From a virus: a DNA stretch of 44,654 bases. Both the position numbers and the translations under genes were made by a program. This document shows, one piece after another, positions 1,699-44,654 of the stretch. The notes beneath the pieces were generated by a model. It was not told the DNA's origin. It did not search any database and worked only from the letters and a program-made list of their open reading frames with translations. Location of the stretch: IMG/VR virus record IMGVR_UViG_3300045988_143597; one strand, 5' to 3'. Position 1 is the stretch's first letter. The number at the start of each line of letters is the position of its first letter.

Positions 1699-1715
1699 CG
1701 CTTACTCACTTCCTT

Positions 1716-2924: not shown

Positions 2925-2927
2925 GAC

Positions 2928-3782: not shown

Positions 3783-3791
3783 GACACTCCC

Positions 3792-14089: not shown

Positions 14090-15109
14090 TTAGGCCAGCA
14101 CCGTGGCAACCATCGACGCGTTGGGGTTCTTCAGCACGGGCATTGCCATAGCGTTGGCGCGTACCCAATATGAATAGGGGTCATCTTCCTTGTGCAGGCC
14201 AGCGACAATGCCGCCCTGATCGCCAGGCAATAGAGAATACTGCGGGTCGCCAGATTCCGGGGTACGTCCCCACACGGTAGATCCGAGTACACCGCTGCCG
14301 ATCTCTGGAAGCATGAACACCTTCTTGGGGTCCAGAATGTGCTTGGCAGTGCCACCGACGTTGGTCTTGCGGTCATAGAGTGTGATCAGCGGCAGTCCGT
14401 AGGACGTCAACAAAGTGTTGATCGCATCGACCGTGGTGATGGTGGGGGTGTTGACGCCACCAACGGCTTTACGCACTACTTCGTTGCGCTGTAGTGCAGA
14501 GAGCGCTTGTCGGGACATGATGATGGTGCCAGGCAGGACCCCGTTTTCATCTGCGTAGGTTTCCGACCAACCAATGAGGTCAGTGATCGGATCACCATCT
14601 TTATCCCACTTCTTAGATGCGTCGACCTTCATCTTGGTGTCACGTCCCAGATCTGCGGTGATCTTTAGTCCGTTTTCGTTGATGTTGATCGCTGCGGTTT
14701 CCAAGATTTGGCCGCGTAGCGCCTCGACACGCTCAGAGATCGACCGCACGGCGTTGTAGGCCACGGATGCGACGGTGAGCTTGAGCTTGTTCTCTTCGGG
14801 CCGCCCTGCTAAGCCCATCAGGACATCTAGTTCACCCACGCGCATCTTTCGGGATACCGGGGGCAGTGGCAGGGTGACAAGCTCTCCGCCCTCATATCCG
14901 CCGATGGACGCTTCAGCATCATAGGAGCGGTATTCAGCGGTGGGGATCAGTCCATGGCGCGTGCGGGTGAACTCCGCTGTGGTGCCCTCAATGTTTTCGG
15001 ATGGCAGGAATGTTGCCAGGGACCCCTTTTGCTGTTCGATCTGCTCCAGTGAAGCCCGTGCAGCTTCGGTCAGTTCGTTGGGGGTGATGAGATCAGTCCA
15101 TAGTGCCAT
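14090..15109 (-). CDS. major capsid protein
   Basis: 339-aa ORF after the scaffold and decoration genes. N-terminus MALWTDLITPNELTEAARASL resembles the capsid protein E-like family. Confidence 0.8.
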   Translation of the reverse strand: MALWTDLITPNELTEAARASLEQIEQQKGSLATFLPSENIEGTTAEFTRTRHGLIPTAEYRSYDAEASIGGYEGGELVTLPLPPVSRKMRVGELDVLMGLAGRPEENKLKLTVASVAYNAVRSISERVEALRGQILETAAININENGLKITADLGRDTKMKVDASKKWDKDGDPITDLIGWSETYADENGVLPGTIIMSRQALSALQRNEVVRKAVGGVNTPTITTVDAINTLLTSYGLPLITLYDRKTNVGGTAKHILDPKKVFMLPEIGSGVLGSTVWGRTPESGDPQYSLLPGDQGGIVAGLHKEDDPYSYWVRANAMAMPVLKNPNASMVATVLA

Positions 15110-17891: not shown

Positions 17892-19310
17892 TTATTCCTG
17901 CAACCCCGCTAGATCATCTGGCTTCACAGTGCCCAACTTGCTGCCCAGTTCATTGAGTCGCTTATCTGCGGTCTGTTTCGCCAACTCAGCTTTCATTGCC
18001 CGTTGATCCTCCAAAGGAATACGCAAACGATCCAATACCCACGGGTGCGTTGCAGGTAGAACACCAGCACCAATAAGCTTCACCAGAGCATCCGATTCAG
18101 CCGCCAACTGCTGCGTTGCAGGGGACTCCCACTTAGGTGCCACCTGTTTCGTGAACTCCGCCCACACAGGACGCGCAGTGCCCGTCAAATACAACAACGT
18201 CCAACCCAACTGGTTGAGATCGCCAGTAATAAGCCGCTGTTGGCCCTCAATGCTGCGGATAAGGCGTTCAAGCCACGCACGAATAGCATCACCAGATGGC
18301 GGATTCTCAGTAGAAAAACCAAGATACGCAGTAGGCAACCCCGTCGCAGATGCAAGCAATTGGGAATACGCGCGCAACTGCTCGATATACGGTGTCGGTG
18401 GTGCTGCGGTGAACTGCCCAACACTAGGCACCTGCCCATCTTCGTCGCGTGGGATCGCCAGCATCCGCCCCATCGTCACCCGCCACCCCGCCTCAACCAT
18501 CTCCTGATGCGAAGGATTATCAGAGGCGGTGAAATCAGACATATCCGCACCCATAGCGTAGCGCTGCGGAGTCGTGTAAAACTCGCGGTTAATCTCCATA
18601 CCCAACATCGTGCGCGCAGCAGCTTGGGTGTAGTACTTCACCGATGGCGTAATCAAACTACGCCCATACCACTCACGAGATCGCAGCTTATTGCGGATAC
18701 GAAAAAACGGCACCATACCCGGCACCGTCTTATATTCGTGAACCACCTCAGCATCATTCGGATGTGTGCCAGGCTGGACCACAATACTGTAGCCCTCAAA
18801 GTGGATCACCTCACGGGAATACACCCACCAATCGGCGCTTAGCCCGGCGTTGCGAATGATCCGAAGGGCTGCAGATGCCCGCCCGGAGATCGGGTCCCAC
18901 CGCAACGTTCCATCCAAAGGTGACACACTATGCAGCGCCCATTGATTGGTGCCCGGCACCTGCTCCACACTCAAGAAACCAACACCATAGATCAAAGAAT
19001 CTTGCACAGCTTCCTGGATACGATCAGCTGCAGCAAACGTGCGGTTAAACTCCGCCATGCCATAGCCATCGCCGTCATCCCACCCGAGGAAATTCATTCG
19101 CTCATGGTGCGTATCAACCACCGTCGATGGCCAGTCACATACCACACCAATGTTCGCCAATTGTGGTGGCACCGCAATGTTCAAACTATGCACACGGACA
19201 GATCCGTCATAGTAAGACAATGCTTCTTTATTGGTTTCCGCCCGCGCAAATACCTGCTGTTTCAGCTCTGCACGGATACTCTGCTCATCTCTCGTTAACT
19301 TACGGGTCAT
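17892..19310 (-). CDS. portal protein
   Basis: 472-aa ORF overlapping the TerL stop by 4 nt. Size and position are typical of a portal. Confidence 0.85.
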   Translation of the reverse strand: MTRKLTRDEQSIRAELKQQVFARAETNKEALSYYDGSVRVHSLNIAVPPQLANIGVVCDWPSTVVDTHHERMNFLGWDDGDGYGMAEFNRTFAAADRIQEAVQDSLIYGVGFLSVEQVPGTNQWALHSVSPLDGTLRWDPISGRASAALRIIRNAGLSADWWVYSREVIHFEGYSIVVQPGTHPNDAEVVHEYKTVPGMVPFFRIRNKLRSREWYGRSLITPSVKYYTQAAARTMLGMEINREFYTTPQRYAMGADMSDFTASDNPSHQEMVEAGWRVTMGRMLAIPRDEDGQVPSVGQFTAAPPTPYIEQLRAYSQLLASATGLPTAYLGFSTENPPSGDAIRAWLERLIRSIEGQQRLITGDLNQLGWTLLYLTGTARPVWAEFTKQVAPKWESPATQQLAAESDALVKLIGAGVLPATHPWVLDRLRIPLEDQRAMKAELAKQTADKRLNELGSKLGTVKPDDLAGLQE

Positions 19311-20962
19311 AGGATCACCGCCTTTCTACGCTTACGGGGCGTGCCACCAAAACCTGCTTTAGTCGCATCCAAACACGCCTTATACGCCATCACAGCTGCA
19401 TATGCTGCGTCGATCTTGTCAGGGCTAGATGGGTGTGCTTTGTACAGCAAATAACCAGTGCGGGTCGCACGCCTCCGAGCATTGAGGAAATGTCTAATCA
19501 ACTGCGGATCATTGCTCATCGTCATCTCCCCACCAACAATCGCCTGCCTCATATTTTCCACTGCTTCATGCACCAACGATCCCCTACCTTTCGGCCACAC
19601 GGAAATAGGTGCGTTACGGGAACCACGGACACGCAACTTGCGCCCATACTTTGCTTCCCAATCAGCAACCTGCCCCTGCCACCCAGATGGATCAGCATAA
19701 AAAGCAACCACATGGTACCGATCAAACGCATCCGCGATAGTTGCTTCCACATCCAACAGATTCGGCTGCCAATCTTGCGGATCATTCGGCCCCTGCTCCC
19801 AAATGCGGATAGTGAACAAGTGCTTATCGGATATCCGCATCGCCACTAGTGCGGTCGCGTCAGCTTTGCCACGGGTGCGACCACGGGAACCATCGAAACC
19901 AAGGACGATCTGATCACCCGGCAAGACTTCTTTAGAGTCATCCACAATCGCACGGACCTCGGGTTGAGACAACCACGAATCGCTCGCGTGCGTGACCTGG
20001 TTAAGGAAGTCCGACCGCATCACCTGCGGATCGCTCGCGGTATCCCAAATGGTTGCCTTAATCCGATCTAGATCAACATGGCCCGGAGGGCACGGCGGGT
20101 CGTGAATGACACACCCATCCGAATGTCCGCTGGCATCGCCATAGGCCACGCGCATGCCGAAGATCAGTGAATCTTCATCGCTCATATCCGTCGCTGCAGG
20201 AGCTTCACGGTGATCGTAGTACAGGCCATCATCTAGCGTGATACCTTGTTGGATTTGCTGCCAAAACGCCGCCGACTGCTCCGCAACACTGCCCTCACCT
20301 GGAATAAAAGCATTCGGAGTTTCCAACGTCGACCCGCCAAGCTTCGCAGCATTCGACCGCATCACCGCAGCAAGATCAACACCACCATTCGACCGCACCC
20401 ACGTTTCCGTCTGGTCCATGATGGAAAACACCGCGCGGGCACCCTTCACCGACCGTGCAGAAGCTGTAATCGGGCGGATCTGGCCACGAGGCAAGTTCAC
20501 GAAACCGCCCATCGGTTCCAAACCCGGGTAATCGTCATAGAGCTGTTCAGATTGGACCAACTCGTGTAACGCATCCCAGGTATTGCGTGTTTGATCCTCC
20601 GATACTGCAGCAACCTGCACTAGCGGAGTACGCACCGTTGACCACGGTTTACCAACCGGCTGGCCGTTTGCATCCCAACCATCAAACAACACTGGCCCCA
20701 TAGCTTCAGCTAACGCCATAGCCGCCGCGAACGGCGATTTACCCCAACCACGTGGGCGTGAAATCACACCACGGTGAATCTTACGGCGCCCCGTCGCTGG
20801 ATCAAGCTCATAGAAGCGTAGAAGAAAGTCTTCCTGCTCCGGGTACGGAACGAACGGCTCATAATCTTCAACCTCAGGTCGCGAAAGATAAGCCGTCATC
20901 CAGTCAATGACCTGCCACCCGAGCGTAGGGAAATCACTATCGCCAAGTGGTTGCCACGACAT
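19307..20962 (-). CDS. terL: terminase large subunit
   Basis: 551 aa. Walker A-like RPRGWGKSPFAA. Acidic nuclease-type C-terminal half. Follows TerS. Confidence 0.9.
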   Translation of the reverse strand: MSWQPLGDSDFPTLGWQVIDWMTAYLSRPEVEDYEPFVPYPEQEDFLLRFYELDPATGRRKIHRGVISRPRGWGKSPFAAAMALAEAMGPVLFDGWDANGQPVGKPWSTVRTPLVQVAAVSEDQTRNTWDALHELVQSEQLYDDYPGLEPMGGFVNLPRGQIRPITASARSVKGARAVFSIMDQTETWVRSNGGVDLAAVMRSNAAKLGGSTLETPNAFIPGEGSVAEQSAAFWQQIQQGITLDDGLYYDHREAPAATDMSDEDSLIFGMRVAYGDASGHSDGCVIHDPPCPPGHVDLDRIKATIWDTASDPQVMRSDFLNQVTHASDSWLSQPEVRAIVDDSKEVLPGDQIVLGFDGSRGRTRGKADATALVAMRISDKHLFTIRIWEQGPNDPQDWQPNLLDVEATIADAFDRYHVVAFYADPSGWQGQVADWEAKYGRKLRVRGSRNAPISVWPKGRGSLVHEAVENMRQAIVGGEMTMSNDPQLIRHFLNARRRATRTGYLLYKAHPSSPDKIDAAYAAVMAYKACLDATKAGFGGTPRKRRKAVIL

Positions 20963-20975
20963 ACCCAGCGACCTC

Positions 20976-21446
20976 CTAAGAAGATTTACCTTGCTTGAAC
21001 TTGTTAATATCGGTCGGATCTACCGCGTGCAGATTCGCACGCCGATTACGTGCCGACGCCACCTGCCCGTCAGGGCGCCGCGCATCAGCAGCATCGGCAT
21101 CAGCAAACTGCATACGCAGCCGAGCGCGATCTTCCATCGTCGCACCGAACTTAGCTACACGGAGACGCAACTCCTGCAGCACAGACGTGTCGCCACGGCC
21201 CCACAGTTCGGCGTGAAGAATTGCGGTATCCAACAGGAAAGACCAGTCAGTCGAACCGAAATGCTCCGACTGTGGAGCATCTGCCCACATCTTCCACCAG
21301 TTCAATGTCTCATCCGGCCAGGGAACAGACGTGGGCAGCTCCGGTTGGGAAGCTTCTTCAAACCGCAGAATCGTTGTGGGTGTCGGGTCAGCATGACGCC
21401 GCGCCCGTTTAGACGCTGGTTTAGGTGCGGGACCTCGTCCTGCCAT
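20976..21446 (-). CDS. terS: terminase small subunit
   Basis: 156 aa with a basic N-terminus (GRGPAPKPASKRARR), immediately upstream of TerL. Confidence 0.65.
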   Translation of the reverse strand: MAGRGPAPKPASKRARRHADPTPTTILRFEEASQPELPTSVPWPDETLNWWKMWADAPQSEHFGSTDWSFLLDTAILHAELWGRGDTSVLQELRLRVAKFGATMEDRARLRMQFADADAADARRPDGQVASARNRRANLHAVDPTDINKFKQGKSS

Positions 21447-21480
21447 GAGTGAACAACCTCCCTAACAAAATAGATACCGT

Positions 21481-21618
21481 TTAAGAAAGTCCCGAACTTG
21501 CGGGAGCTACTGCACGTGCGGTTTTCCGGGCACGTGCAGCGACGCGCTTCTGCGGACCCGTATATGTCACCTTCAGAGATCTACCTGATTGAGATTTATA
21601 CTCAAAACTGCGCTTCAT
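21481..21618 (-). CDS. small basic protein (45 aa), first gene of the late operon
   Basis: ATG 21618 preceded by GGAGGTGAG. Sequence MKRSFEYKSQSGRSLKVTYTGPQKRVAARARKTARAV... The N-terminal extension in the track ORF lacks an RBS. Confidence 0.45.
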   Translation of the reverse strand: MKRSFEYKSQSGRSLKVTYTGPQKRVAARARKTARAVAPASSGLS

Positions 21619-21657
21619 GACACCCTCACCTCCTCTCACTACGTGAAAACAGCGAAC

Positions 21658-21699
21658 AAAAAAACTCACCACACTGCAAACCAACCGCAATGTAGTGAG
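21658..21699 (-). terminator. strong intrinsic terminator upstream of the late operon
   Basis: Minus strand: CTCACTACATTGC-ggttggttt-GCAGTGTGGTGAG (13-bp stem with 2 G.U pairs) followed by T7. Confidence 0.7.
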
Positions 21700-21721
21700 T
21701 AAAAGTGTCCCCGGCTATAAC

Positions 21722-22090
21722 CTATTCAATATCGAACCCCATCAACTTCGCCAACATGTGACCATCGATATACTTATCTCCCAAAACTTTGCGCTTGACG
21801 CCTAGCTCTTTGAGAAAGCGCTCTTTATGTTTGCGAGTCTTAAAGCACACCGCAAACCAATATTCCGAATCTGTGGCATCACGATAGCGGTCGCGCTCGC
21901 GGCGCGCTCGGTCGCTAAAATCTTCCTGCAATGCTTCAAGCTCGCGGGCGCAATCTTCATTAAGGTTAGGCGGATCGCAATATTCTACATCTTTCAGTGG
22001 ATTATCAGGGTCAGCTTTGGCGAACCCTTTCGCGAAAGAGAAGCTTTCACCCTTGAGGTCGAAACCGCTGCCCTTAAACTCGAATGTCAT
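21722..22090 (-). CDS. hypothetical protein (partner of the PAPS-reductase-like gene)
   Basis: 122-aa ORF overlapping the upstream gene by 17 nt. AT-richer than the flanking sequence. Confidence 0.6.
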   Translation of the reverse strand: MTFEFKGSGFDLKGESFSFAKGFAKADPDNPLKDVEYCDPPNLNEDCARELEALQEDFSDRARRERDRYRDATDSEYWFAVCFKTRKHKERFLKELGVKRKVLGDKYIDGHMLAKLMGFDIE

Positions 22091-22814
22091 GACGAATCAA
22101 CTCCAATTCTGCTAGGGGGAACCACTTCAGCACCTGTTGGTAGTCATCTGGGGCGAATCTGCTCATAGGCTCAATGAATCTGTAGTCAACGCCATCGAAT
22201 GATCTGCCGAACCATTCATAATCAGGGGCTAGGTCAATGTTATGGTCTTTGATGTAGTCATAAACACTGCCTTGTAGCCAATCATAGATCGCAGAGACTT
22301 TATGGCCCTTAGTTTTCATAGCCCCATGCTTTTTGATACTAGCGCGGCGCACTAGGCTATCTGAGGCGCGGACTCCATCGGCTACCCATGTATCTTCATC
22401 CAGGCCTAGATCTGCGCGGATAAATTCCCACATCTCTTCAAATGTGGGTGTAGGTATGCCCGCGCGGAAAATTGACGGTAGATGTTCGGGTGCTTGGAAA
22501 ATATAATTATTCAACAAGCGGTAGAAGCCTGGGTGGGGGTATCGGTGGATCTTTGTTTCTAGCTTATCTTCGCAGTAGTCGAGGTATCGGCGCGAAAACT
22601 CTAGAGGTTGGCGGGGGTTAACTCCGGGCACCGGGTAGAGGTGGGCGAGTTTGATGGATATTCCCTCATTTTTTAGCGCTAACGCTGCTGCCAGTGCATC
22701 TTTTCCGCCGCTGAATGCCACGCATACAGGGCGGTTTTCTTCCTTGAGTTGTTGTCTTATTTCTGCACTTGGTGGCACATTTTCAATTGATTTGGTGAGT
22801 TTTATTGTTGTCAT
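22074..22814 (-). CDS. PAPS reductase-like PP-loop ATP pyrophosphatase family protein
   Basis: N-terminal PP-loop motif VAFSGGKDA. 246 aa, a size typical of the phage PAPS_reduct family. Confidence 0.65.
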   Translation of the reverse strand: MTTIKLTKSIENVPPSAEIRQQLKEENRPVCVAFSGGKDALAAALALKNEGISIKLAHLYPVPGVNPRQPLEFSRRYLDYCEDKLETKIHRYPHPGFYRLLNNYIFQAPEHLPSIFRAGIPTPTFEEMWEFIRADLGLDEDTWVADGVRASDSLVRRASIKKHGAMKTKGHKVSAIYDWLQGSVYDYIKDHNIDLAPDYEWFGRSFDGVDYRFIEPMSRFAPDDYQQVLKWFPLAELELIRHDIRV

Positions 22815-22944
22815 TGTGGGGGGCCTTTCTTTGTGTTGATCATAGCCAGTTTTTAGGTGCTGTCAAGGCATGGGGGTAGATGGGGTTAAAAACGCTGTGA
22901 CATGCATGTTTGTTGCCATAGCACCCGCTAATGGGGGTATTGTT

Positions 22945-22972
22945 TTGACTTGCCTTTCGCCTGGTGTAATGT
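22945..22972 (+). promoter_or_regulatory. candidate sigma-70-like promoter of the plus-strand island
   Basis: TTGACT (22945-22950), 16-nt spacer, TAATGT (22967-22972), about 45 nt upstream of ATG 23019. Confidence 0.35.
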
Positions 22973-23018
22973 AGTTGGTGTCAGCAAGAAAGACACACAC
23001 CGCAAAGGAAACAAAAAC

Positions 23019-23342
23019 ATGAACGCAAAGAAAAACACCGAACAGCACCTAGACAACATAATCTCCAACTTCTTCGACACAACCTACGAATACATTGACT
23101 ACATTCGCGGCGCCGAAACGCTCAACCTCAACAATGAAAATACCCCGCTAGGTACCCGCCTAGTCGCAAACCTAAAAAATTCATACCGGGAAGCTGCCGA
23201 GCATCTCACGCAGATCGAGATCAAAGCAATCATCAAAACTGTAACCTCGATCAATCGCCAAACCATGCTAGACAGCGAGCTCAATCTAACCAACGACCTC
23301 GACGCTTTCGCAAGCGACCTCATCGACCAAATCAACCGCTAA
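23019..23342 (+). CDS. hypothetical protein
   Basis: ATG 23019 preceded by AAGGAAA. 107 aa. The track ORF start at 22950 lacks an RBS. Confidence 0.6.
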   Translation: MNAKKNTEQHLDNIISNFFDTTYEYIDYIRGAETLNLNNENTPLGTRLVANLKNSYREAAEHLTQIEIKAIIKTVTSINRQTMLDSELNLTNDLDAFASDLIDQINR

Positions 23343-23365
23343 ACGCGCAGAAAGGATCTAAACAA

Positions 23366-23491
23366 TGAACACCCTCTACTACTACGAAACAGATGAGCTG
23401 TTCATTGAAATGGACGAAAACGGCAACTACATCAACTATTGGAAAGTTTCCACACTAGACGACCGCTACTACTTCACCACCGCAGCCTAAA
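23366..23491 (+). CDS. hypothetical small acidic protein (41 aa)
   Basis: Hand translation: MNTLYYYETDELFIEMDENGNYINYWKVSTLDDRYYFTTAA*. RBS GAAAGGA 8 nt upstream. Confidence 0.4.
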
Positions 23492-23553
23492 CCACCACCG
23501 AGCCGCTAGACGAGAGTTTTACCGGCACCCTACCGCCTCAAAGGATACCCGCC

Positions 23554-23856
23554 ATGGACAACGCCTACAGCGACTACAAATTAGCTGAACTGAAAGATCA
23601 CATCACCGAAGAATGGCAAGCACTCCAACTACTTGAGATAGAAGCTATGGACTTCCAAACCAGCATCAGCATAGTTGGCGACCCTGATCAACTCCGCAAC
23701 TCCTCCGACCTGTTCAACCTGGAACAAAACGAACAGCGCGCCACATATGTCGAACACATGCAAGCCAAACTAGAGCGCGCCATCGCCATCTGCCTGACCT
23801 TCGACAACATCACAGATGAACAAATCACCGCAGTACTCGACCGCCATATTGACTAG
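23554..23856 (+). CDS. hypothetical strongly acidic protein
   Basis: 100 aa. 21 D+E versus 7 K+R by direct count. RBS AAAGGA. Confidence 0.65.
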   Translation: MDNAYSDYKLAELKDHITEEWQALQLLEIEAMDFQTSISIVGDPDQLRNSSDLFNLEQNEQRATYVEHMQAKLERAIAICLTFDNITDEQITAVLDRHID

Positions 23857-23875
23857 AAAGCGCACACCTTAGCTC

Positions 23876-24004
23876 ATGAGCAGCGACATCACTACACCCT
23901 TCCTATCAACCGAAACCAAAGAAAAACTAGCAGACATGGCCATCTACGCGGCCACTATCATCGCGGGCGATATCATCGCCGCCCTGGAAGCACGAAACAT
24001 CTAG
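23876..24004 (+). CDS. possible small protein (42 aa)
   Basis: ATG-to-TAG ORF fills the gap between neighbours, but has no clear RBS. Confidence 0.25.
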   Translation: MSSDITTPFLSTETKEKLADMAIYAATIIAGDIIAALEARNI

Positions 24005-24018
24005 AAAGGATCACACCA

Positions 24019-24342
24019 ATGACCACCAACATCTTCAGCCTCCCCCGGTTGGAAACTCTCCATGTATTGGAAGAGTGGGAAACCGAACCTAACCGCCAAG
24101 GTATCGACCTTAAGCGCTGTGTGCTCGCAAACCACGACTGCACCGAAATGTTCGAACTCTATTACGGTGGCGATGATATGGGCTACGGACTCACCATCTG
24201 CGACATAGAACGACGAAACACCTACGACAGCGCCAACACGCAAGATTGGGGCTACCTCGACCGCCTATTCAACGGGCGCGATAACTGGCAGCAACTCATC
24301 ACATACATGGAAAACATGACACCATCCCGGCATGCTGCATAA
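24019..24342 (+). CDS. hypothetical acidic protein
   Basis: 107 aa. RBS GAAAGGA. Last gene of the plus-strand island. Confidence 0.65.
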   Translation: MTTNIFSLPRLETLHVLEEWETEPNRQGIDLKRCVLANHDCTEMFELYYGGDDMGYGLTICDIERRNTYDSANTQDWGYLDRLFNGRDNWQQLITYMENMTPSRHAA

Positions 24343-24355
24343 CACCACAAACTAA

Positions 24356-24383
24356 CCCCCCTCTAGGATCACCTGGAGGGGGG
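24356..24383. terminator. bidirectional hairpin terminator between convergent genes
   Basis: CCCCCCTC-taggatcacctg-GAGGGGGG (8-bp GC stem) followed by TTT on the plus strand. Confidence 0.6.
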
Positions 24384-24403
24384 TTTAAGCATGTCCACAA
24401 TCG

Positions 24404-24634
24404 CTACTGTCCACGCGACGCTATACGGTCGCGGGCTTTCTTAAGTGTAGATATTGTGACGCTACCAGCATTCGCAGTCTCTGCCCATGTAGCGCCTAAT
24501 TCCATCGCTCTCACCATGTTCGCATCTCTCTTTTCCATTATTGCGCTCCGCTGTCTATCCAAGTCAGCTATCCGCTCAGACAACAAAGCAACCTCGGATA
24601 ACGCCTCATCTTTAGATAAAAAATCACTAGACAT
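24404..24634 (-). CDS. hypothetical protein, last gene of the early operon
   Basis: ATG 24634 (MSSDFLSKDEA...) preceded by GAGAGG. 76 aa. Confidence 0.55.
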   Translation of the reverse strand: MSSDFLSKDEALSEVALLSERIADLDRQRSAIMEKRDANMVRAMELGATWAETANAGSVTISTLKKARDRIASRGQ

Positions 24635-24702
24635 AAAACATGACCTCTCAGAAACTCCAGACCCGCACATAACCCTAGCGGCAATGCCCTCGGCTTGACT
24701 CC

Positions 24703-24915
24703 GGGGGGTGGGGGTGGGGGTGTCCCCCCTGGGTGTTTTGGGTGTTGTGTTGTGTTGTTTGGTGTTGTGGGGGTGGGGCGGTGTTGTTGTGGGGGGTGGG
24801 GGGTGTTGTGTTGTGTTGTGGGTGTTGTGGGTGTTTTGGTGGGTTGTTTTGGTGTTTGTGTGGGTGGGTGGTTTGTGTGGGTGGTTTGTGTGGGTGGGTG
24901 GTTGTGGTGGTGTTT
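24703..24915. repeat. near-pure G/T (plus) = C/A (minus) low-complexity tract with G-quadruplex motifs and short internal repeats
   Basis: 24780-24915 has no A or C (136 nt). 24731-24778 likewise (48 nt). G-run sets lie at 24703-24733 and 24769-24803. Confidence 0.9.
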
Positions 24916-25228
24916 ATGTGGTGTGGGTGGTTGTTTTTAGTCCGGGGTGTGGTTCTGGGGGGTGTTTTGCTCTGTTGTGGTGTTGTTGGTGGCCCCATTG
25001 GATTTCTTTGCGGGTTTTTTGTTGGTGGCAGTTGGTGCAGACGGTTTGGAGGTTGTTTGTGGTGTGTGGGCCGCCTTGGCTGAGGGGTATTTTGTGGTCT
25101 ATTTGGTCTGGGGTGCCGGTGCAGCCGGGGTATTGGAGTTGGCAGGTGTGGTTGTCGCGGGTGTGGATGTGGTGTTTTTGTTGTTTGGTGAGGTGTGGGC
25201 GGTGTGTTTTGGTGTTGTAGCCTGGCAT
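24914..25228 (-). CDS. HNH endonuclease (compositionally re-coded)
   Basis: 104 aa. HIHTRDNHTCQLQYPGCTGTPDQIDHKIPLSQGGPHTTNNLQTVCTNCHQQKTRKE matches the C..C...DH..P...GG...NL...C..CH..K pattern. Confidence 0.75.
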   Translation of the reverse strand: MPGYNTKTHRPHLTKQQKHHIHTRDNHTCQLQYPGCTGTPDQIDHKIPLSQGGPHTTNNLQTVCTNCHQQKTRKEIQWGHQQHHNRAKHPPEPHPGLKTTTHTT

Positions 25229-25436
25229 GTTTTTGGTGGGGTTGTTGGGTGGGTTTATTGGGGTTTTTGTGTTGTTTGGCTATGGTTTGTTTGTTGTTTG
25301 GCTGGGTTTTGTTTGTTTTCTTTGGTGGGTTTTGGTGTGGTTTGTGGGTTGTTGTTTGGTGGGTTGTTGGTGATGTCTTTGAGGGTGTGTTTGGTGGTGG
25401 TTGTTTGGTGTCGGTGGTGGTGTGCTGGTTATGTTG

Positions 25437-25466
25437 CCTGTGCCTGTTCCTGTGCCTGTGCCTGTG
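25437..25466. repeat. hexanucleotide microsatellite (cctgtK)x5
   Basis: cctgtg cctgtt cctgtg cctgtg cctgtg, read directly. Confidence 0.85.
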
Positions 25467-25721
25467 GTGCAGGTTGTTGTGGTGGTGGTGTTGTTGTGGT
25501 GCAGGTTGTTGTGGTGGTGTTGTTTGCCATTGGTGTTTCCTTTGGTGTTGGTGTGGTGTGTGTTTGTAGGGGGTGTGCTGGGTGTGTGGGTGAAGCTCGG
25601 TGGTGTGGGGGTTGTGGTGGTGTGCTGGTTGTGTGGTGGCACTGTTGTGCTGTGGTGTGTGTTTGGTGCGGTGGGGTGCCCCGGTTGTGGGGGTGGGGCG
25701 GTGTTGTGGTGGGGTGCCCCG

Positions 25722-25759
25722 GTGCGTACATACCCCCCGGCGTGCGCATACCCCCCCGG
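25722..25759. repeat. tandem 19-bp repeat within an array of CCCCGG-terminated motifs
   Basis: gtgcgtacataccccccgg / cgtgcgcatacccccccgg. CCCCGG also ends at 25684, 25722 and 25782. Confidence 0.8.
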
Positions 25760-25826
25760 TATGTTTAATGCCCCTCCCCCGGTGTGTTGTGGTGGGGTGG
25801 GGCAATAGATTTACTTACTAAACGCA

Positions 25827-25855
25827 ATTATAGCATGTGTTTGCTCAGTGGTCTA
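25827..25855 (-). promoter_or_regulatory. candidate promoter reading into the C/A-rich region
   Basis: Minus strand: TAGACC (25850-25855), 17-nt spacer, TATAAT (25827-25832). Confidence 0.35.
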
Positions 25856-26420
25856 GTTGATGCTGGTCTGTGAGGTATGCGAGGACGTTGGGGAGTTGGT
25901 AGTAGTTGCGTCGGTTTGTTTTGATGCTGGTGATGTGTCCCCGGTAGGTCCAGTTGTAGAGCTGTTTCGGGGTAACGGTGTAGCCATAGCGCTTCAACTT
26001 GATAAGGATGCTGTGTTGCGTTTCCCACTTGGGTGTTGTTGGGGGTTGGGTGTTGGGGAGTTGGTTGGTGAGTTCTTCGGTAATGGTGGGCAGGTCGGTG
26101 TTTGTGAGGTCTAGTGTTTCGGGGTTGGTGGTGATGGTGAGGGCGTGGTGGTCTAGCCAGTGTAGTAGTGCGGTGGGGTTGGTTTGTGGGGGTTGGGTTG
26201 CGAGGATGTCGGCGAGGGCGTGGGTGAGTTCTGTGAGTTTGATTGTTGTTTCTTGTTCTATGGTGAGCCAGTGGATGTTGGTGGGGGGTTTGGGGCCTGT
26301 TGGGGTGTGGGTGGGGATTTCTGGTGGGGGTGTTTTGGTGGTTTTGAGTTGTTTAAGGGTTGTGTAGTGGGTTCGGAGTTGGTTGGTGTGTTGATAGATG
26401 TGGGTGTAGTTAGTGATCAT
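25845..26420 (-). CDS. DNA-binding protein with C-terminal excisionase/MerR-type HTH (compositionally re-coded)
   Basis: 191 aa. C-terminus YTVTPKQLYNWTYRGHITSIKTNRRNYYQLPNVLAYL fits the HTH_17-like pattern. Thr/Pro/Gln/His/Asn-rich N-terminal part. Confidence 0.65.
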   Translation of the reverse strand: MITNYTHIYQHTNQLRTHYTTLKQLKTTKTPPPEIPTHTPTGPKPPTNIHWLTIEQETTIKLTELTHALADILATQPPQTNPTALLHWLDHHALTITTNPETLDLTNTDLPTITEELTNQLPNTQPPTTPKWETQHSILIKLKRYGYTVTPKQLYNWTYRGHITSIKTNRRNYYQLPNVLAYLTDQHQLDH

Positions 26421-26477
26421 GCCTTTGCCCTGGTTTGTTTTGGTGTGGGGTGTGTTGGCTAGTATGCGCCGATACTC

Positions 26478-26714
26478 TTAGTCTTCATGTTGCCAGGTGG
26501 CCAGGGGGATATCTCTTTCTATCCCGTCGTATGCTGTCGACTGTGCGATACGTGCGGCGAGTTGGAGTTTCGAGGCGACTTCATCAGCTAGTGCAGCGCT
26601 GAGGCGTATTTCCAGCGGCGTATCGCCCCCACTGTGGGTTTGCAAAATAACTGGGTGGGTGTCATCGGCGCGGAGAACGACGCTGATTCCCGCCTCTGTG
26701 AGTTTTTCAAACAT
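26478..26714 (-). CDS. hypothetical protein
   Basis: ATG 26714 (MFEKLTEAGISVVLR...) preceded by AGGAG. 78 aa. The upstream extension in the track ORF is low-complexity. Confidence 0.55.
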   Translation of the reverse strand: MFEKLTEAGISVVLRADDTHPVILQTHSGGDTPLEIRLSAALADEVASKLQLAARIAQSTAYDGIERDIPLATWQHED

Positions 26715-26725
26715 CGTGCTGGCTC

Positions 26726-26890
26726 CTAGTCTGTGTGTAGTTGGATGGTGTTTTTGGTGTGCCGTAGGGCGTCGCACCAGCCGTGCCAGTAGTCTGCGGT
26801 TTGCTGTGGCGGCTGTGCGTATCCTTGTTGGAGCATGTCGGTGATCCACGCCAGCACGGGCGCGGGGTCATACCAGTAGGTGGTGTGCAT
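26726..26890 (-). CDS. hypothetical small protein (54 aa, below the track cutoff)
   Basis: Hand translation: MHTTYWYDPAPVLAWITDMLQQGYAQPPQQTADYWHGWCDALRHTKNTIQLHTD*. AGGAG RBS. Fills the gap after dut. Confidence 0.45.
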   Translation of the reverse strand: MHTTYWYDPAPVLAWITDMLQQGYAQPPQQTADYWHGWCDALRHTKNTIQLHTD

Positions 26891-26894
26891 GGGT

Positions 26895-27314
26895 TTAGGC
26901 TCCTGTTGATCCGTGGCCGTTGTTGCCGCGTTGTGTGTCTTCGAACTCTGTGACGGGCTGCCAATCGACCTCTACAGTGTGGTGGATGATGAGCTGGGCG
27001 ATCCGGTCCCCGCGTTGGATGGTGTAGGGCAGGTGCCCTAGGTTGATGAGATTGACGAAGATTTCACCGGTGTAGCCGGGGTCGATCACGCCGGGGGCGT
27101 TGGTGACGGTGATGCGGTGTTTTGCAGCCAGGCCGCTGCGGGGGCAGACGTAACCAACGGTGTTAGGCGGTAGGCCGATGTGTAGGCCGGTGGGGATTAG
27201 TGCATGTTGGCCGGGGGCTAGTGTTTTAGCTGCTGTGGCTGTGAGGTCGTAGCCCGCGTCCGTGGGGTGAGCTTTCACAGGTGCGGGGCCGGTGTGGTTA
27301 ATAGGGGTGGGCAT
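26895..27314 (-). CDS. dut: dUTP diphosphatase
   Basis: Motifs AGYDL, PRSGLA, GVIDPGYTGEI, RIAQL and C-terminal RGNNGHGSTG. Confidence 0.9.
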   Translation of the reverse strand: MPTPINHTGPAPVKAHPTDAGYDLTATAAKTLAPGQHALIPTGLHIGLPPNTVGYVCPRSGLAAKHRITVTNAPGVIDPGYTGEIFVNLINLGHLPYTIQRGDRIAQLIIHHTVEVDWQPVTEFEDTQRGNNGHGSTGA

Positions 27315-27318
27315 GGAT

Positions 27319-27621
27319 TTAGCTCTCTTCCTTTTGCCGGTGGGTGGTTGCTTTGGCTATGTATTCCGCCATCCAGATAGGCATTTTGATTCTCAATTTG
27401 TACTCGGCTACATGGCTTTGAGGTGCGTCCGTCTTGTTAAAGTCCACCCAGATTTCGAGAACTGCATGTTCGTCGTAAAACTCCAAGTCTGCGTCATACG
27501 ACCCCATGCAGGTGAGGCCGAGGGTTGCGACCTCACCGTAGCCGGGGTAAGGCATGACGCTGTAGTCAAGGCCATAGTGATCTGAAAGGGTACGCAGGTT
27601 ATTGTTTTCTGAAACGTTCAT
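27319..27621 (-). CDS. hypothetical protein
   Basis: 100-aa ORF, tightly packed in the early operon. Confidence 0.6.
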   Translation of the reverse strand: MNVSENNNLRTLSDHYGLDYSVMPYPGYGEVATLGLTCMGSYDADLEFYDEHAVLEIWVDFNKTDAPQSHVAEYKLRIKMPIWMAEYIAKATTHRQKEES

Positions 27622-27623
27622 GG

Positions 27624-27998
27624 TTAGCCTCCTAGTAGTTCGCGCTGCTCGTCGCGGAGTTCAGCGCGGAGGGCCTTAAGCCCTAATAGCTTGTCTGCCC
27701 GTGCTTGTTCGTTGGGGTCGCTTAAGTCATCGATCATCATGTCAATGCGGTCGAGCACCCAGCCTATGGTGCGAGCTTCCACCATTTCAGTGTTTGGCGG
27801 TTGCGGTGTGGACACAGCGAGATCCGCAGCATTGACACCCATTACCCGGCAATTTTCTTTAACGCCCTCCCAGTAGAACCAATCGTGTTCGCCTCGCGCT
27901 GATTCTTTCCCTTTGACAGCGTCGCCCGTGCTGTGCTTAATGATGTCGAGCACATCCCCGTACCGGATCCAAGGGTTAGATGTAGGCGTGCTCACCAC
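27624..27998 (-). CDS. hypothetical protein
   Basis: 124-aa ORF. 7-nt overlap with the upstream gene. Confidence 0.6.
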   Translation of the reverse strand: MVSTPTSNPWIRYGDVLDIIKHSTGDAVKGKESARGEHDWFYWEGVKENCRVMGVNAADLAVSTPQPPNTEMVEARTIGWVLDRIDMMIDDLSDPNEQARADKLLGLKALRAELRDEQRELLGG

Positions 27999-28414
27999 TC
28001 CCCCTCTTCCTTCTCCCCTAGGTTGCAGTAGATTTCATCTATGTAGCTAGCGAAGTCTTTAAGGCAGTCGGCTAGGCTGATGGAGATGTACATGGTGCCG
28101 CTGCTGAAAAACAGCTTGCCATCGTAAGTCCTGACAAAGAGGTACATGTTTTCTTTTCGTGGGCACATGATGGGCAGGGTTTTCATGTACACTCCGCGAT
28201 CGGCGACACTAAGCTCAAAGTAATCGCGCCAGACCTCAAGTTGCGTATCGGTAGCCACAACGCTCACGCTTGTGCCGGGGGCTTCGAATAGGAGTGTGGC
28301 GACATAGTTTTCGTCGATGTATTCGATGTCATAGAAACTACTTGACTCAGAGATCTCGTAGCTAAGTTGGAAGTTTCCAAAATCGACGCGGCTGGGTTGG
28401 AGTCGGTCTTGCAT
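27992..28414 (-). CDS. hypothetical protein
   Basis: 140-aa ORF, 3 nt after the RusA stop. Confidence 0.6.
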   Translation of the reverse strand: MQDRLQPSRVDFGNFQLSYEISESSSFYDIEYIDENYVATLLFEAPGTSVSVVATDTQLEVWRDYFELSVADRGVYMKTLPIMCPRKENMYLFVRTYDGKLFFSSGTMYISISLADCLKDFASYIDEIYCNLGEKEEGEW

Positions 28415-38876: not shown

Positions 38877-39470
38877 ATGACAGATCCACGAGAAGTTTTT
38901 AAGTCACTTACTGGCAAACGAGTTACGTCCGTTGACATCGCGGAAATGTTGGACGTCAGCCGAAATACAGTCCAAACATGGATCAAAGAAGGGTTCGCCG
39001 CAGATGAAATCATCAAGGTCGCTCGGGAACTCAACATCAACCCCGCCGAAGCTCTAGTTGAACTTGGAAAACTCACAGCAAAAGAGGTCACCGACTTCAT
39101 CGAAGGTGGCGGCACTTTGCTTGAATTGGCAAGCCTTGAGGCCCTGATCCAACAACTTGCAAAGGTCGGACTAAATGCGGAGGAACTGGCCGAGCTGTCA
39201 AGCGACGGGCTACAGCGCCTAGAGAAAAAGTGGGAGCTTCAGCTCAAAGAATTGAAAGAATCAAACACCGAAAACACGCAGGCCAACATGGCCGACGTCG
39301 CACACCTGGACGAAAAGCGCAACACAACTGTCCAGCCCGGCCAGTACGATCCAGAGCACGAAAACGCGGTAGATCTAGCAACCTCAGACCCAGGCGAAAT
39401 CGCAGCCGACGGTTCAATCAACGAAACCGACGCCGCATACGACGAACAAGACACAGACAACGCCCGCTAA
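38877..39470 (+). CDS. ImmR/CI-like HTH repressor
   Basis: MTDPREVFKSLTGKRVTSVDIAEMLDVSRNTVQTWIKEG is an HTH. Acidic C-terminal tail. First gene of the immR-immA-int-like operon. Confidence 0.7.
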   Translation: MTDPREVFKSLTGKRVTSVDIAEMLDVSRNTVQTWIKEGFAADEIIKVARELNINPAEALVELGKLTAKEVTDFIEGGGTLLELASLEALIQQLAKVGLNAEELAELSSDGLQRLEKKWELQLKELKESNTENTQANMADVAHLDEKRNTTVQPGQYDPEHENAVDLATSDPGEIAADGSINETDAAYDEQDTDNAR

Positions 39471-39488
39471 CACAGAAAGGAACCATCG

Positions 39489-39881
39489 TTGAGACTAACG
39501 ACGGACAACCTCTACACCCTCGCCGAACAACACAATATCCACATCAGCTGGCGAACCAACCTCCCCCACAAAGGCATCTGGATCCCCAACCTCCACACCA
39601 TCGTCCTCAACAACCACATCCACGGCCCCGACCTCCGCTGCACACTAGCCCACGAACTAGCCCACGCACTCCACAACCACCCACCAGGCCACCACCCCCA
39701 CAACGAACGTCAAGCAGACGAAACTGCAGCCACATGGCTCATCACCCCCACCGAATACGCACTAGCAGAAAAAATCTACGGACCACACATCGCCGACATA
39801 GCCCAAGAACTCGAAGTCACCATGCACATGGTAAAAACCTGGCGAAAAATGGCCGCCCGAAAACGACTACAGCCAAAATAA
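39489..39881 (+). CDS. ImmA/IrrE-family metallopeptidase
   Basis: TTG start preceded by AAAGGA. HEXXH motif in CTLAHELAHALHNH. 130 aa. Confidence 0.7.
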   Translation: MRLTTDNLYTLAEQHNIHISWRTNLPHKGIWIPNLHTIVLNNHIHGPDLRCTLAHELAHALHNHPPGHHPHNERQADETAATWLITPTEYALAEKIYGPHIADIAQELEVTMHMVKTWRKMAARKRLQPK

Positions 39882-39909
39882 CCACCCAACACACCAAAGG
39901 TCTCCAACC

Positions 39910-41046
39910 ATGGCAAGCATCCGCAAATACAAGACTGCCACCGGCACCGCGTGGCGGGTCCAATACCGATCACCGGATGGGCGCAGTCGTACAAAACAAG
40001 GGTTTCCCACCAAAGCCAAAGCAGAATCATGGGCCGCAGCAAACACCACCCAGATCGACGCAGGGGCATGGATCGACCCAAATGCAGGGAAAACCACCAT
40101 CGACCAACTATCCGAACAATGGCTAGCCACACAAACACGACTTAAACCAACCGTGCAACGCCTCAATGAAAGCTATTGGCGCGTACACATACAACCACAA
40201 TGGGGACGCCGACCGGCGTCCTCCATACGACCCTCCGAAGTGCAACAATGGATAAACAACATAGACCGCTCCCCTAGCGTCATTAAAGGCGCGCACGGGT
40301 GCTTAGCCCAAATCTTGGACATCGCCGTCAATGACAACATGATTCCAAGCAACCCTGCACGCCTAGCGAAACTGCCGAAAAAGAATAAAGCCGTCAAAGT
40401 GTATCTAACCATTGAGCAGCTTTACCGGTTGGCAGATGAGTCGAAGGTCTACAAAGATCTAGTTCTGTTGCTTGGAACTACGGGGCTTAGGTGGGGTGAA
40501 GCTATCGCACTACGTCCGTGTGATTTTGACCTATTGAAGCGCAGGATCAACGTCACACGCAATGCCACGCGCGCATCGGATGGGTTTGTGGTCGGGCCTC
40601 CGAAAACACATGAGCATCGTACTGTTGCGATAACGTCGCACGCCCTGGAGGTTCTACGGCCACGCATTGAGGCCACCGGTGCTGATGCATTGTTGTGGCA
40701 CGGCGCAGATGGCAATTTTTTGCGTCACGCGGGTAAAGAATCGTGGTTTGAGTATGCGGTGAGAAGGTGCCAGGACAGCGATCTGACGTTTCCACGGTTA
40801 ACGCCTCATGGTTTGAGGCATGTGGCGGCGGGGTTAATGGTATCTGCGGGGGCGAATGTGAAGGTTGTGCAGCGTCAACTTGGTCACGCATCGGCGGCTA
40901 TGACGTTGGATACATACGCGGATTTATTTGACGGGGACCTTGACGGTGTGGCCGATATTTTGGAGAAAAAGTTGAACGATTGTCGTGGGATTGTCGTGGG
41001 ATTGCCTGATAAAAGGTCTTCTAGCAGCTCGAAAAGTGCCGTCTAG
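39910..41046 (+). CDS. int: tyrosine integrase
   Basis: 378 aa. N-terminus MASIRKYKTATGTAWRVQYRSPDGRSRTK is an arm-binding domain. Catalytic region LLLGTTGLRWGEA...HGLRHVAAGL...LGHASAAMTLDTYADLF. Confidence 0.9.
   Translation: MASIRKYKTATGTAWRVQYRSPDGRSRTKQGFPTKAKAESWAAANTTQIDAGAWIDPNAGKTTIDQLSEQWLATQTRLKPTVQRLNESYWRVHIQPQWGRRPASSIRPSEVQQWINNIDRSPSVIKGAHGCLAQILDIAVNDNMIPSNPARLAKLPKKNKAVKVYLTIEQLYRLADESKVYKDLVLLLGTTGLRWGEAIALRPCDFDLLKRRINVTRNATRASDGFVVGPPKTHEHRTVAITSHALEVLRPRIEATGADALLWHGADGNFLRHAGKESWFEYAVRRCQDSDLTFPRLTPHGLRHVAAGLMVSAGANVKVVQRQLGHASAAMTLDTYADLFDGDLDGVADILEKKLNDCRGIVVGLPDKRSSSSSKSAV
40980..41004. repeat. 25-bp arm-type repeat (2 x TGTCGTGGGAT), copy 1, inside the int 3' end
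   Basis: ttgtcgtgggattgtcgtgggattg is identical to 41212-41236. Confidence 0.85.
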
Positions 41047-44614: not shown

Positions 44615-44654
44615 AGTTTTTCTCCTTTCCGCCCAAAAATTGGGCATGAAAAAA
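44600..44654. repeat. second copy of the 55-bp terminal repeat
   Basis: Identical to 1-55. Confidence 0.95.

Follow-up and report, generated by a model that had tools for sequence, protein, structure and literature searches.

We analysed a viral DNA sequence of 44,654 nucleotides (nt), IMG/VR record IMGVR_UViG_3300045988_143597, which is referred to below as the window (the whole stretch at its full length) and whose marker genes, listed at the end of this text, are those of a temperate siphophage. Positions 24700–26460 of this genome form an island in which the plus strand consists largely of G and T and which carries two genes on the minus strand, one for an HNH endonuclease and one for a putative DNA-binding protein of 191 amino acids (aa). 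The island is the right-end, cos-proximal cassette of the phage. Its layout was read from an alignment of four full copies, namely the window, an ENA metagenome contig (L001), an IMG/VR contig (L002/L004) and a prophage in a Corynebacterium argentoratense assembly (L009). On the minus strand, the cassette runs from the gp54-like gene through a promoter, a G-run leader, a C/A-only spacer, the HNH gene, a C/A-only trailer and a G6/C-tract element to cos. The features, with the evidence for each, are as follows:

26421–26466, minus strand: C/A-rich leader and ribosome-binding region of the 191-aa gene, left cassette boundary (shared homology)
25845–26420, minus strand: gene of the 191-aa protein, BFK20-gp54 family, with an N-terminal helical domain and a C-terminal MerR/excisionase-like winged helix-turn-helix (HTH) domain (profile, fold)
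25827–25855, minus strand: promoter-like site of the sigma-70/SigA type, TAGACC-17-TGcTATAAT, directed toward the HNH gene and cos (consensus match)
25690–25826, minus strand: leader, AT-rich at its start, in which CCGGGG(G)n motifs recur, the only stretch besides the terminal element that is not A/C-only (alignment)
25229–25689, minus strand: C/A-only, indel-rich, cryptically simple spacer (alignment, Tandem Repeats Finder)
25429–25530, minus strand: possible open reading frame (ORF) of 33 codons, MANNTTTTTCTTTTPPPQQPAPQAQAQEQAQAT, stop included (conserved AAAGGA Shine-Dalgarno sequence at 25528–25543)
24914–25228, minus strand: gene of the cos-associated HNH endonuclease, 104 aa (Pfam, PHROG)
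24734–24913, minus strand: pure C/A trailer with degenerate short repeats (composition, Tandem Repeats Finder)
24703–24733, minus strand: cos-proximal element CCCAGGGGGGACACCCCCACCCCCACCCCCC, a G6/C5 inverted repeat followed by C-tracts, which are G-tracts on the plus strand (identical in four relatives)
24680–24701: predicted cos region, cut near 24684–24695, sense strand GTCAAG / CCGAGGGCAT / TGCC (alignment to the ends of relatives)

On the plus strand, the island comprises 781 G, 687 T, 117 A and 176 C (83% G+T), and a run of 136 nt at 24780–24915 contains neither A nor C (74 G, 62 T). A sample at 26041–26140 holds 50 G, 35 T, 9 A and 6 C; samples from the late genes at 9001–9100 and 14521–14580 have 51% and 53% G+T, respectively. 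The base counts and G+T samples of a first-pass annotation, made from the letters alone, were all reproduced exactly, and its proposal that the skew stands out from the rest of the genome was borne out. In 100-nt windows, the keto skew, (G+T–A–C)/N, ranges from 0.34 to 1.0 across the island, far outside the genome-wide spread (mean 0.008, standard deviation 0.23 over the whole window), and the sole dip within the island falls at the short G/C-run leader (~25700–25850). Pure G/T runs of at least 40 nt are found in the entire window only at 24730–24915 and 25321–25372, and 100 dinucleotide-preserving shuffles contained none. The maximum absolute skew per 200-nt window reaches 0.92–0.99 in four loci that carry the island, as against 0.58 or less in ~40 related or control loci.

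The sense strand contains 787 C and 183 G in 1781 nt (44% C, 10% G), and the non-coding spacers are purer in A and C than the genes. All six frames are open, as the first-pass annotation had described, and ORFs of 50 aa or more number 26; they overlap one another, and the longest has 376 aa. An A/C-only strand with a G/T-only partner can contain no palindrome, mixed-alphabet site, start or stop codon, or hairpin, and the earlier claim that palindromes and hairpins are absent from the island is largely upheld by the data. There are three 6-bp palindromes in the island, compared to ~20 (minimum 10) in other windows of the same size, and the predicted folding energy of minus-strand RNA in most island windows is 0 to –14 kcal/mol per 150 nt, compared to a window-wide mean of –43. 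The claim does not extend to the G-run leader and the G6/C-tract element, where pairing is possible.

A microsatellite or simple tandem repeat was considered and rejected: Tandem Repeats Finder gave only degenerate overlapping arrays (58–100% matches), mostly in the spacers, and both genes are non-repetitive. In IMG/VR, an A/C 14-mer flanked on each side by 40 M (A or C) had zero matches, and a second flanked A/C 14-mer retrieved only (ACC)n microsatellites in large AT-rich contigs, both searches being weak tests of rarity. The true (ACC)n microsatellites from IMG/VR look very unlike the island.

The two minus-strand ORFs had been proposed to be intact genes that were re-coded, not decayed, and this view is supported by profile matches, homologues, a structural model and the composition of their third codon positions. 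The 104-aa product of 24914–25228 matches PF01844 (46.5 bits against a cut-off of 21.4, E = 4e-12), HNH_5 (33.4 bits against 27.5, E = 4.5e-8) and phrog_333 (3e-24), in agreement with its initial assignment to the HNH proteins. A 97%-identical protein in C. argentoratense is annotated as an HNH endonuclease. HNH homologues are the last gene in many actinophage genomes, including those of BritBrat, ReT1v-1 and BFK20, and by profile and position the product is a predicted nuclease of the cos-associated type. Its start codon is not preceded by a Shine-Dalgarno sequence. A or C occupies the first, second and third codon positions of the HNH gene with frequencies of 0.79, 0.73 and 0.98, and Thr, Pro, His, Gln, Asn and Lys make up 65% of the protein, 43–45% of its BritBrat and ReT1v-1 homologues and 26–35% of four others.

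The 191-aa product matches phrog_12885 over its full length (2e-27, residues 6–188) and has 34 remote homologues among 1.84 billion representative proteins. The family alignment (A1) contains the motifs GP..P.N and, near the C-terminus, W..RG.I...Y, with P46, R160 and Y174 among the invariant residues. A homologue of 202 aa and normal composition, encoded by IME1320_01, aligns with it end to end (28% identity, E = 4e-16). A tblastn search of the phage records with the full protein returned no match, probably owing to low-complexity masking, and with the C-terminal 63 aa as the query only IME1320_01 was found. The AlphaFold model has a predicted local distance difference test score (pLDDT) of 94.6 and was matched by Foldseek to BFK20 Gp54 (E = 1.2e-8). 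Structures onto which its C-terminal domain can be superposed are those of BldC, GlnR, TnrA and the GIsul2 excisionase, with target-normalised template modelling scores of 0.51–0.72 and root-mean-square deviations of 2.2–2.9 Å over 55–61 columns (probability up to 0.97); for BldC, GlnR and the excisionase, the scores are 0.67–0.72. In Pfam, the C-terminal 63 aa scored 13.3 bits against HTH_17, for which the cut-off is 27 (E = 0.1), and the whole protein had no match; among 19 family members, HTH_17 was matched in four and MerR in two. Thus, of the suggestion that the gene ends in an excisionase-type HTH, the fold class has some backing from the model and from the family, and the profile threshold was missed. 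The assignment to the excisionase/MerR-type winged HTH fold class is weakly supported and does not imply that the protein is an excisionase. In this gene the A/C frequencies at the three codon positions are 0.79, 0.71 and 0.88, and 56% of the residues are Thr, Pro, His, Gln, Asn or Lys.

The sense strand is thus nearly devoid of G and T, so that both proteins are written mostly in the eight A/C-only codons (Thr, Pro, His, Gln, Asn, Lys). The pressure is on nucleotides, not on amino acids: the frequency of A or C at third codon positions (A/C3) is 0.98 and 0.88 in the two genes, as against 0.18–0.6 in the late genes, and the spacers are the purest parts of the island.

The island occurs, with natural variation, in more than 10 independent assemblies from ENA, Logan, JGI and NCBI. 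In addition to the three relatives aligned above, these include nine more Logan and ENA contigs, one of them labelled human oral metagenome, and the cluster of the 191-aa protein at 90% identity has 37 members or variants. No close relative of the window was found among 50,697 phage records, and megablast and blastn searches of these records with the island, and with the 4 kb around it, gave zero matches. The best match of the large terminase subunit TerL (61%) is in Rhodococcus phage ReT1v-1. The GTDB representative genomes contain zero matches to the 191-aa protein; their TerL relatives are at most 59% identical, and the island is in none of them. Because the island recurs in the C. argentoratense assembly and in the other sources, the host is a Corynebacterium, probably of the C. 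argentoratense group, and the island belongs to a temperate Corynebacterium siphophage of the human oral cavity.

These independent copies bear on the possibility that the island is a sequencing or assembly artefact or functionless, degenerate low-complexity filler. Such an origin might seem to be suggested by the frequent breaks of assemblies ~340 nt past the 191-aa gene and by the mis-called antisense ORFs, but it is effectively refuted by the natural variation among more than ten independent assemblies and among the 37 variants of the 191-aa protein. Besides, conversion chemistry would have affected more than 1.75 kb and would not have spared the codons for catalytic Cys, Gly, Asp and Trp residues; both genes pass profile and structure tests, and a weaker form of the bias is found in phages that were sequenced from purified virions.

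This weaker form, which extends over ~0.4 kb with the same polarity, is located at the HNH gene and the right end of BritBrat, BeeGee, ReT1v-1 and IME1320_01. Alignment of the window with the record ends of BritBrat (...GGCAT) and ReT1v-1 (...TCAAGG) puts its predicted cos cut at ~24684–24695, and the skew halts ~5–20 nt from this predicted cut. In BritBrat, the HNH gene gp98 has an A/C3 of 0.94 with no T at third positions (T3 = 0), and the overlapping upstream gene has 0.61; in ReT1v-1, the value is 0.95 for the HNH gene and 0.35–0.64 for its neighbours. The HNH gene of IME1320_01, an orthologue of BFK20 gp55 from a different subfamily, has 0.91 (0.46 upstream, 0.38 downstream), and that of the prophage prophiGD51-2 has 0.74 (neighbours 0.48–0.67). 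In BritBrat and ReT1v-1, the bias also covers the non-coding trailer and reaches the last base of the record, and the skew changes sign at base 1, from –0.40 to +0.24 and from –0.52 to +0.24, respectively. The last ~450 nt of ReT1v-1 are the only strongly skewed place in its 41.7 kb. Accordingly, the picture of a free-standing island without precedent, drawn in the first-pass annotation, stands as regards the extremity of the bias but not as regards its isolation: the island is a cos-proximal cassette that ends at cos and has a weaker, ~0.4-kb form in cultured phages.

The bias is convergent, since two unrelated HNH subfamilies are affected, that of the window, BritBrat and ReT1v-1, with A/C3 of 0.94–0.98, and that of IME1320_01, with 0.91 as against 0.44 in the BFK20 orthologue. 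No skew at the cos end or the HNH gene was seen in Che9c, D29, BFK20, prophiFVLQ01-1, DatBoi or RGL3, and L055 has the cos-proximal element but no skew upstream of it. The existence of such unskewed cos ends argues against a generic host-driven process. In IME1320_01 (L043, 4170–5012), a gene annotated as GTP pyrophosphokinase (small alarmone synthetase-like) directly follows the gp54-family gene; it has an ordinary composition and lies between two A/C-rich blocks.

The homology common to the four full copies begins ~45–50 nt upstream of the ATG of the 191-aa gene. Directly upstream of the cassette in L009, an Abi_2 (abortive-infection family) gene (7817–8776) takes the place of the small genes of the window, and a glutaredoxin gene is found farther upstream, as in BFK20. 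Just 3' of the 191-aa gene lies the candidate promoter, followed by an untranslated leader of ~290 nt. The promoter-like site has 10 of 12 consensus matches and an extended TG and is identical in the window, L001, L002 and L009; comparable promoter-like sequences are found in BFK20 and IME1320_01, either between these genes or ahead of them. Just past it, at 25732–25782, the motif CCGGGGG(G)(G)TATG(C/T)(A/G)C(A/G)CAC is repeated; the window has one extra copy of a 19-nt leader unit compared to its relatives, and the motif is otherwise conserved in L001, L002 and L009. These CCGGGGG repeats may be a protein-binding array. The RNA fold of the G-run leader was no better than that of shuffled sequences (z 0.22), and the leader matched no Rfam family; neither were any Rfam families found at a permissive threshold in 20500–28000.

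The promoter and its leader raise the possibility of an RNA device. As rut sites are C-rich, G-poor and unstructured, the island might be an outsized Rho-loading (rut-like) tract that holds back read-through from the HNH region past cos to the late operon, with release coming from an antiterminator (the gp54-like protein is a possibility) or from titration of Rho; alternatively, its G/U-free RNA might evade G- or U-dependent endoribonucleases. The essentially structure-free sense strand does have the composition of a rut site over the required length (at least ~80 nt), the strong promoter between the DNA-binding-protein gene and the untranslated leader is conserved, and all strongly skewed genes are A/C-rich on the sense strand, whichever DNA strand they occupy. 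In BFK20 and IME1320_01, a promoter is followed by a hairpin at the same place, a layout that resembles Q-PR'-tR' of lambda. However, the 191-aa gene is recoded although it lies upstream of the promoter, the composition in BritBrat switches between overlapping, presumably co-transcribed ORFs, and the skew ends at cos although the transcript must run on into terS. The lack of an Rfam element and of significant structure in the leader also speaks against such a device. Furthermore, rut sites span ~80 nt of ordinary sequence, whereas the island tract is 10–20 times longer, excludes U as well and spans translated genes. On balance, we regard an RNA device as improbable.

In the spacer at 25229–25689, 17% of the ungapped columns are variable and many of the indels are not multiples of three. 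The frame of the possible 33-codon ORF is kept in L001 through in-frame indels, and its stop codon is lost in L002. At the other end of the cassette, the cos-proximal element reads G6-T-G5-T-G5 on the plus strand. It is also found 20–45 nt from the physical right end of the Gordonia phages BritBrat and BeeGee and in the IMG/VR contig L058, and it is a candidate packaging-termination (cosQ-like) element or recognition element for the HNH protein or the terminase. The element (last ~70 nt of L044 and L053; L058; L055) is conserved across Corynebacterium prophages and Gordonia phages despite the differences in genus and G+C content. Beyond it, the homology among the relatives divides into two alleles. 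In L001, L009 and L002, the genes next after that of the HNH protein are terS, terL and portal; terS lies ~230–410 nt past the island in L001 and L009, and L002 is similar except for a 140-nt remnant.

Three of the four canonical G-quadruplex motifs of the window fall inside the island, the terminal G6-T-G5-T-G5 element is common to the Gordonia phages, and the plus-strand keto skew turns from negative to positive at cos, as it does at an origin. One might therefore suppose that the G/T strand forms G-quadruplexes, or the C-rich strand i-motifs, and that these serve in replication initiation, packaging termination or end protection. We consider this very improbable: the island is mostly T-rich G/T sequence with short G runs and is not dense in G-quadruplex motifs, the formation of these structures requires neither the exclusion of A and C nor the recoding of genes, and L055 has the terminal element with zero skew.

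Elsewhere in the window, a second segment with an A/C-rich sense strand lies on the plus strand at ~39250–40150; in 50-nt windows its keto skew is –0.3 to –0.72. It takes in the 3' portion of a repressor-like HTH gene, the gene of an ImmA-like metalloprotease (39489–39881, plus strand; A/C3 0.89, phrog_87) and ~240 nt at the start of the integrase gene. Across the genome, A/C3 varies by gene block: it is 0.18–0.38 in the distal tail genes (100–4574), ~0.3 in terS, terL and portal, 0.46–0.61 in the head genes, 0.65–0.8 in the early genes (26.5–32 kb) and then 0.26–0.42 at 32.2–34.9 kb. The blocks are thus heterogeneous although nearly all genes share one strand. IME1320_01 has the same dichotomy between early and late genes. 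Replication-type strand asymmetry, or an origin, was considered as the main cause and rejected: the sign does switch at cos, but the extreme bias is confined to 1.75 kb (~0.45 kb in ReT1v-1) and is distributed by blocks, not over replichores.

A genome that is a mosaic of third-position A/C blocks, from 0.18 to 0.98, could also have inherited its composition, with the cassette and the ImmA segment recombined from an unsampled donor whose sense strand is extremely A/C-rich throughout its genome or its early region and the sharp borders representing recombination joints. The cassette borders do match breaks in homology (upstream in L009; an insert or a different terS downstream), and the early region of IME1320_01 is broadly A/C-rich. 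Nevertheless, this scenario merely shifts the question to the donor, and searches of the phage records, IMG/VR and GTDB turned up none. HNH genes whose products are only ~42% identical, in genera with 53–67% G+C, retain the bias, which implies that synonymous sites have turned over many times under continuing pressure. An origin by recombination from such a donor is therefore quite improbable.

Among three relatives, 1.6–1.7% of the columns are variable in the two island genes, compared to 16.7% in the flanking genes, a ~10-fold difference; in the spacers of the four relatives the figure is 15–17%, similar to the flanks, with many indels. All six variable sites of the HNH gene, and 22 of the 24 variable columns of the trailer, are A<->C. 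The 24 changes in eight distinct copies of the 191-aa gene are all A<->G, C<->T or A<->C, and there are zero A<->T, C<->G or G<->T changes in these copies, though such changes are common in the flank. The low divergence of the genes and the A<->C changes are as expected from an exclusion of G and T from the sense strand, which would freeze two-fold sites and leave four-fold sites toggling between A and C. Among the changes that could be polarised, nine are from A/C to G/T and seven are in the opposite direction. Since these counts are about equal, and both selection and biased mutation predict this at equilibrium, they do not separate the two.

A mutational origin would involve strand-asymmetric mutation starting from the cos ends, which drives the 5'-ended strand to G/T and the 3'-ended strand to A/C, with selection sparing the residues that are needed. 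Starting from cos nicks, an error-prone repair polymerase with a preference for G.T mispairs might re-synthesise the 5'-ended strand again and again, or this strand might remain single-stranded for long periods and undergo deamination of C to U and of A to hypoxanthine, the process known from the mitochondrial H strand. Among known systems, the H/L asymmetry of vertebrate mitochondrial DNA, which works in this way, is the closest analogue (PMC1794132). Such a process accounts for the polarity at either end: at the right end the A/C-rich strand is the 3'-ending one, in BritBrat and ReT1v-1 the skew changes sign at position 1, and the first kilobases of the left arm of the window are G/T-rich on the top strand. 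Among the left-arm genes, the first top-strand gene (24404–24670, A/C3 0.37) and the bottom-strand genes (0.70–0.77) fit the expectation, and the PAPS-reductase-like gene (0.63) does not. Coding and non-coding DNA are affected alike, the effect peaks beside cos, the second skewed segment disregards gene boundaries, and the part of the 191-aa gene that is least converted has five additional G>A changes in L009.

In spite of these points, the magnitude of the bias (a 136-nt run without exception, A/C3 of 0.98) far exceeds any replication or repair skew known to us. The inner border is a step, with the skew falling from 0.6 to 0.24 at 26460, and in BritBrat A/C3 jumps from 0.61 in gp97 to 0.94 in gp98 over a 4-nt gene overlap. 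Moreover, the left end is only weakly affected, the cos ends of Che9c, D29, BFK20 and L055 are unskewed, that of L055 despite its cos-proximal element, and the ImmA segment is distant from cos and of the opposite absolute polarity. Mutation as the driving force is the main rival of the selective explanation given below, and we consider it only somewhat less probable.

Taken together, it seems likely, if not assured, that an undescribed strand-specific constraint or process at the cos end of one actinophage packaging-module lineage clears G and T out of the strand whose 3' end lies at cos, and that in Corynebacterium it has forced two essential genes and 0.8 kb of non-coding DNA into two letters. 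The sense strand of the island is this 3'-ending strand, and G and T have been lost from nearly all of its positions at which the proteins and signals allow it. As to the cause, our tentative preference, held at somewhat less than even confidence, is that the two-letter state is kept by selection for a terminal tract, and a transcript, that are free of structure and of recognition sites. Selection is favoured by the convergence, the step-like borders, the stop at cos, the unbiased cos ends of other phages and the start of the HNH gene without a Shine-Dalgarno sequence.

Such selection would act on the nucleic acid itself and would be tied to the position of the module just before the packaging cut. 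A transcript that starts at the internal promoter and crosses cos to reach the terminase genes would have the tract as its opening part, and the tract would be the final stretch of DNA to move past the terminase-HNH complex ahead of cleavage. If the comparison with lambda-like phages holds, it might also enter the cell ahead of the remaining DNA. Many of the HNH enzymes that phages encode beside cos are site- and strand-specific nickases with sites of 3–7 bp, e.g. CG^GT (PMC3592412). Two-letter terminal DNA would be inert to sequence-specific nickases and nucleases, both the phage's own HNH-terminase complex, which has to restrict its cuts to cos, and host restriction enzymes, and structure-free RNA would permit translation of the HNH gene in the absence of a Shine-Dalgarno sequence.

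Several observations weigh against selection as the cause. The ImmA segment is far from cos, is on the opposite DNA strand and ignores gene borders, and the moderate A/C-richness of the early genes (0.65–0.8) indicates that some of the bias is shared more widely within this phage group. The site of the phage-gamma type nickase, ACCG (CGGT), is not depleted on the sense strand, with 18 occurrences in 1.8 kb compared to one per 169 nt genome-wide. Shielding 1.75 kb out of 44.7 kb from restriction would be a weak advantage unless this part is specially exposed, and the benefit of a two-letter tract is one that we infer. Finally, strong selection and strongly biased mutation predict the same equilibrium spectrum and are inseparable by sequence.

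The closest counterpart in gene content is the right end of Corynebacterium phage BFK20, where gp53 (glutaredoxin), gp54 and gp55 (HNH) are followed by a 3' protruding cos ~80 nt after the HNH gene. It shares with the island the gene order, the family of the 191-aa protein, a promoter-like sequence between the genes and the position of the HNH gene as the last before cos, but it has an ordinary composition (A/C3 0.44–0.46, no keto skew), an HNH protein of another subfamily and no C/A-only spacers. BritBrat, BeeGee and ReT1v-1 resemble the island in their HNH proteins (~42% identical, with a PEPHPG C-terminus), in the polarity of the bias (A/C3 0.94–0.95, T3 = 0) and in its flip at the physical end; the cos-proximal G5/C-tract element is the same in BritBrat and BeeGee and more divergent in ReT1v-1. 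In these phages, however, the bias covers ~0.4 kb with a keto skew of –0.4 to –0.6, as against –0.6 to –1.0 in the window, there are no pure tracts, and the proteins contain 43–45% Thr, Pro, His, Gln, Asn and Lys.

The H and L strands of vertebrate mitochondrial DNA likewise pair a G/T-rich strand with an A/C-rich one, but there the bias is genome-wide, graded by the time spent single-stranded and much weaker at constrained sites, whereas the island is a sharply bounded 0.4–1.75 kb beside the packaging site of a double-stranded DNA phage. The HNH protein of HK97, gp74, reportedly acts in cos cleavage together with the terminase. As here, cos-associated HNH endonucleases of the HK97 gp74 type, among them the nickases described by Xu and Gupta (2013), are small proteins whose genes lie beside cos, terS, terL and portal; the part of that literature covered here does not deal with base composition, either of the gene or of the surrounding DNA (PMC3592412). 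In the papers retrieved on phage strand asymmetry or skew and on HNH proteins and cos, no description of two-letter recoding or of the weaker end-linked bias was found. The combination of a gp54-family regulator, an HNH endonuclease and cos is a known module, and the two-letter recoding and the end-linked bias appear to be new.

The island represents a natural experiment in alphabet reduction, in which a DNA-binding protein and a metal-dependent nuclease draw 56–65% of their residues from six amino acids with A/C codons. As the bias recurs in cultured phages that lend themselves to experiments (BritBrat, whose host is Gordonia terrae, and ReT1v-1, whose host is Prescottella equi), the cause is directly testable. 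Phage biology would gain something new either way: a functional requirement that the DNA packaged last or the late leader RNA has to satisfy, or a hotspot of mutation linked to cos. If the cause is selection, packaging termination, DNA entry or late transcription has a sequence-level requirement that was previously unsought; if it is mutation, the processing of cos ends creates a local zone of hypermutation.

There is also a practical side, as the tract breaks short-read assemblies and misleads gene callers in several public records. Short-read contigs often stop ~340 nt past the 191-aa gene, within the C/A-only spacer (contig ends of L064–L066). Public gene calls in the island are wrong, with antisense ORFs rich in G, V, C and W being called and the HNH gene being missed (L001, 10600–11437; L060, 3613–4454).

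The marker genes that identify the window as a temperate siphophage genome include portal, capsid and tape-measure genes, a repressor-like HTH gene and an antirepressor gene, in addition to the following:

19307–20962: terL
20976–21446: terS
26895–27314: dUTPase
39910–41046: integrase
43187–44647: lysin

In the window, terS is separated from the predicted cos by a 3-kb insert (~21540–24620), which is absent from L001 and L009 and corresponds to the 140-nt remnant in L002. The insert has a lower G+C content and encodes the PAPS-reductase-like protein (22074–22814; phrog_2302, 5e-29), and it also holds three small plus-strand ORFs that face the island and an 88-aa minus-strand ORF that adjoins cos.

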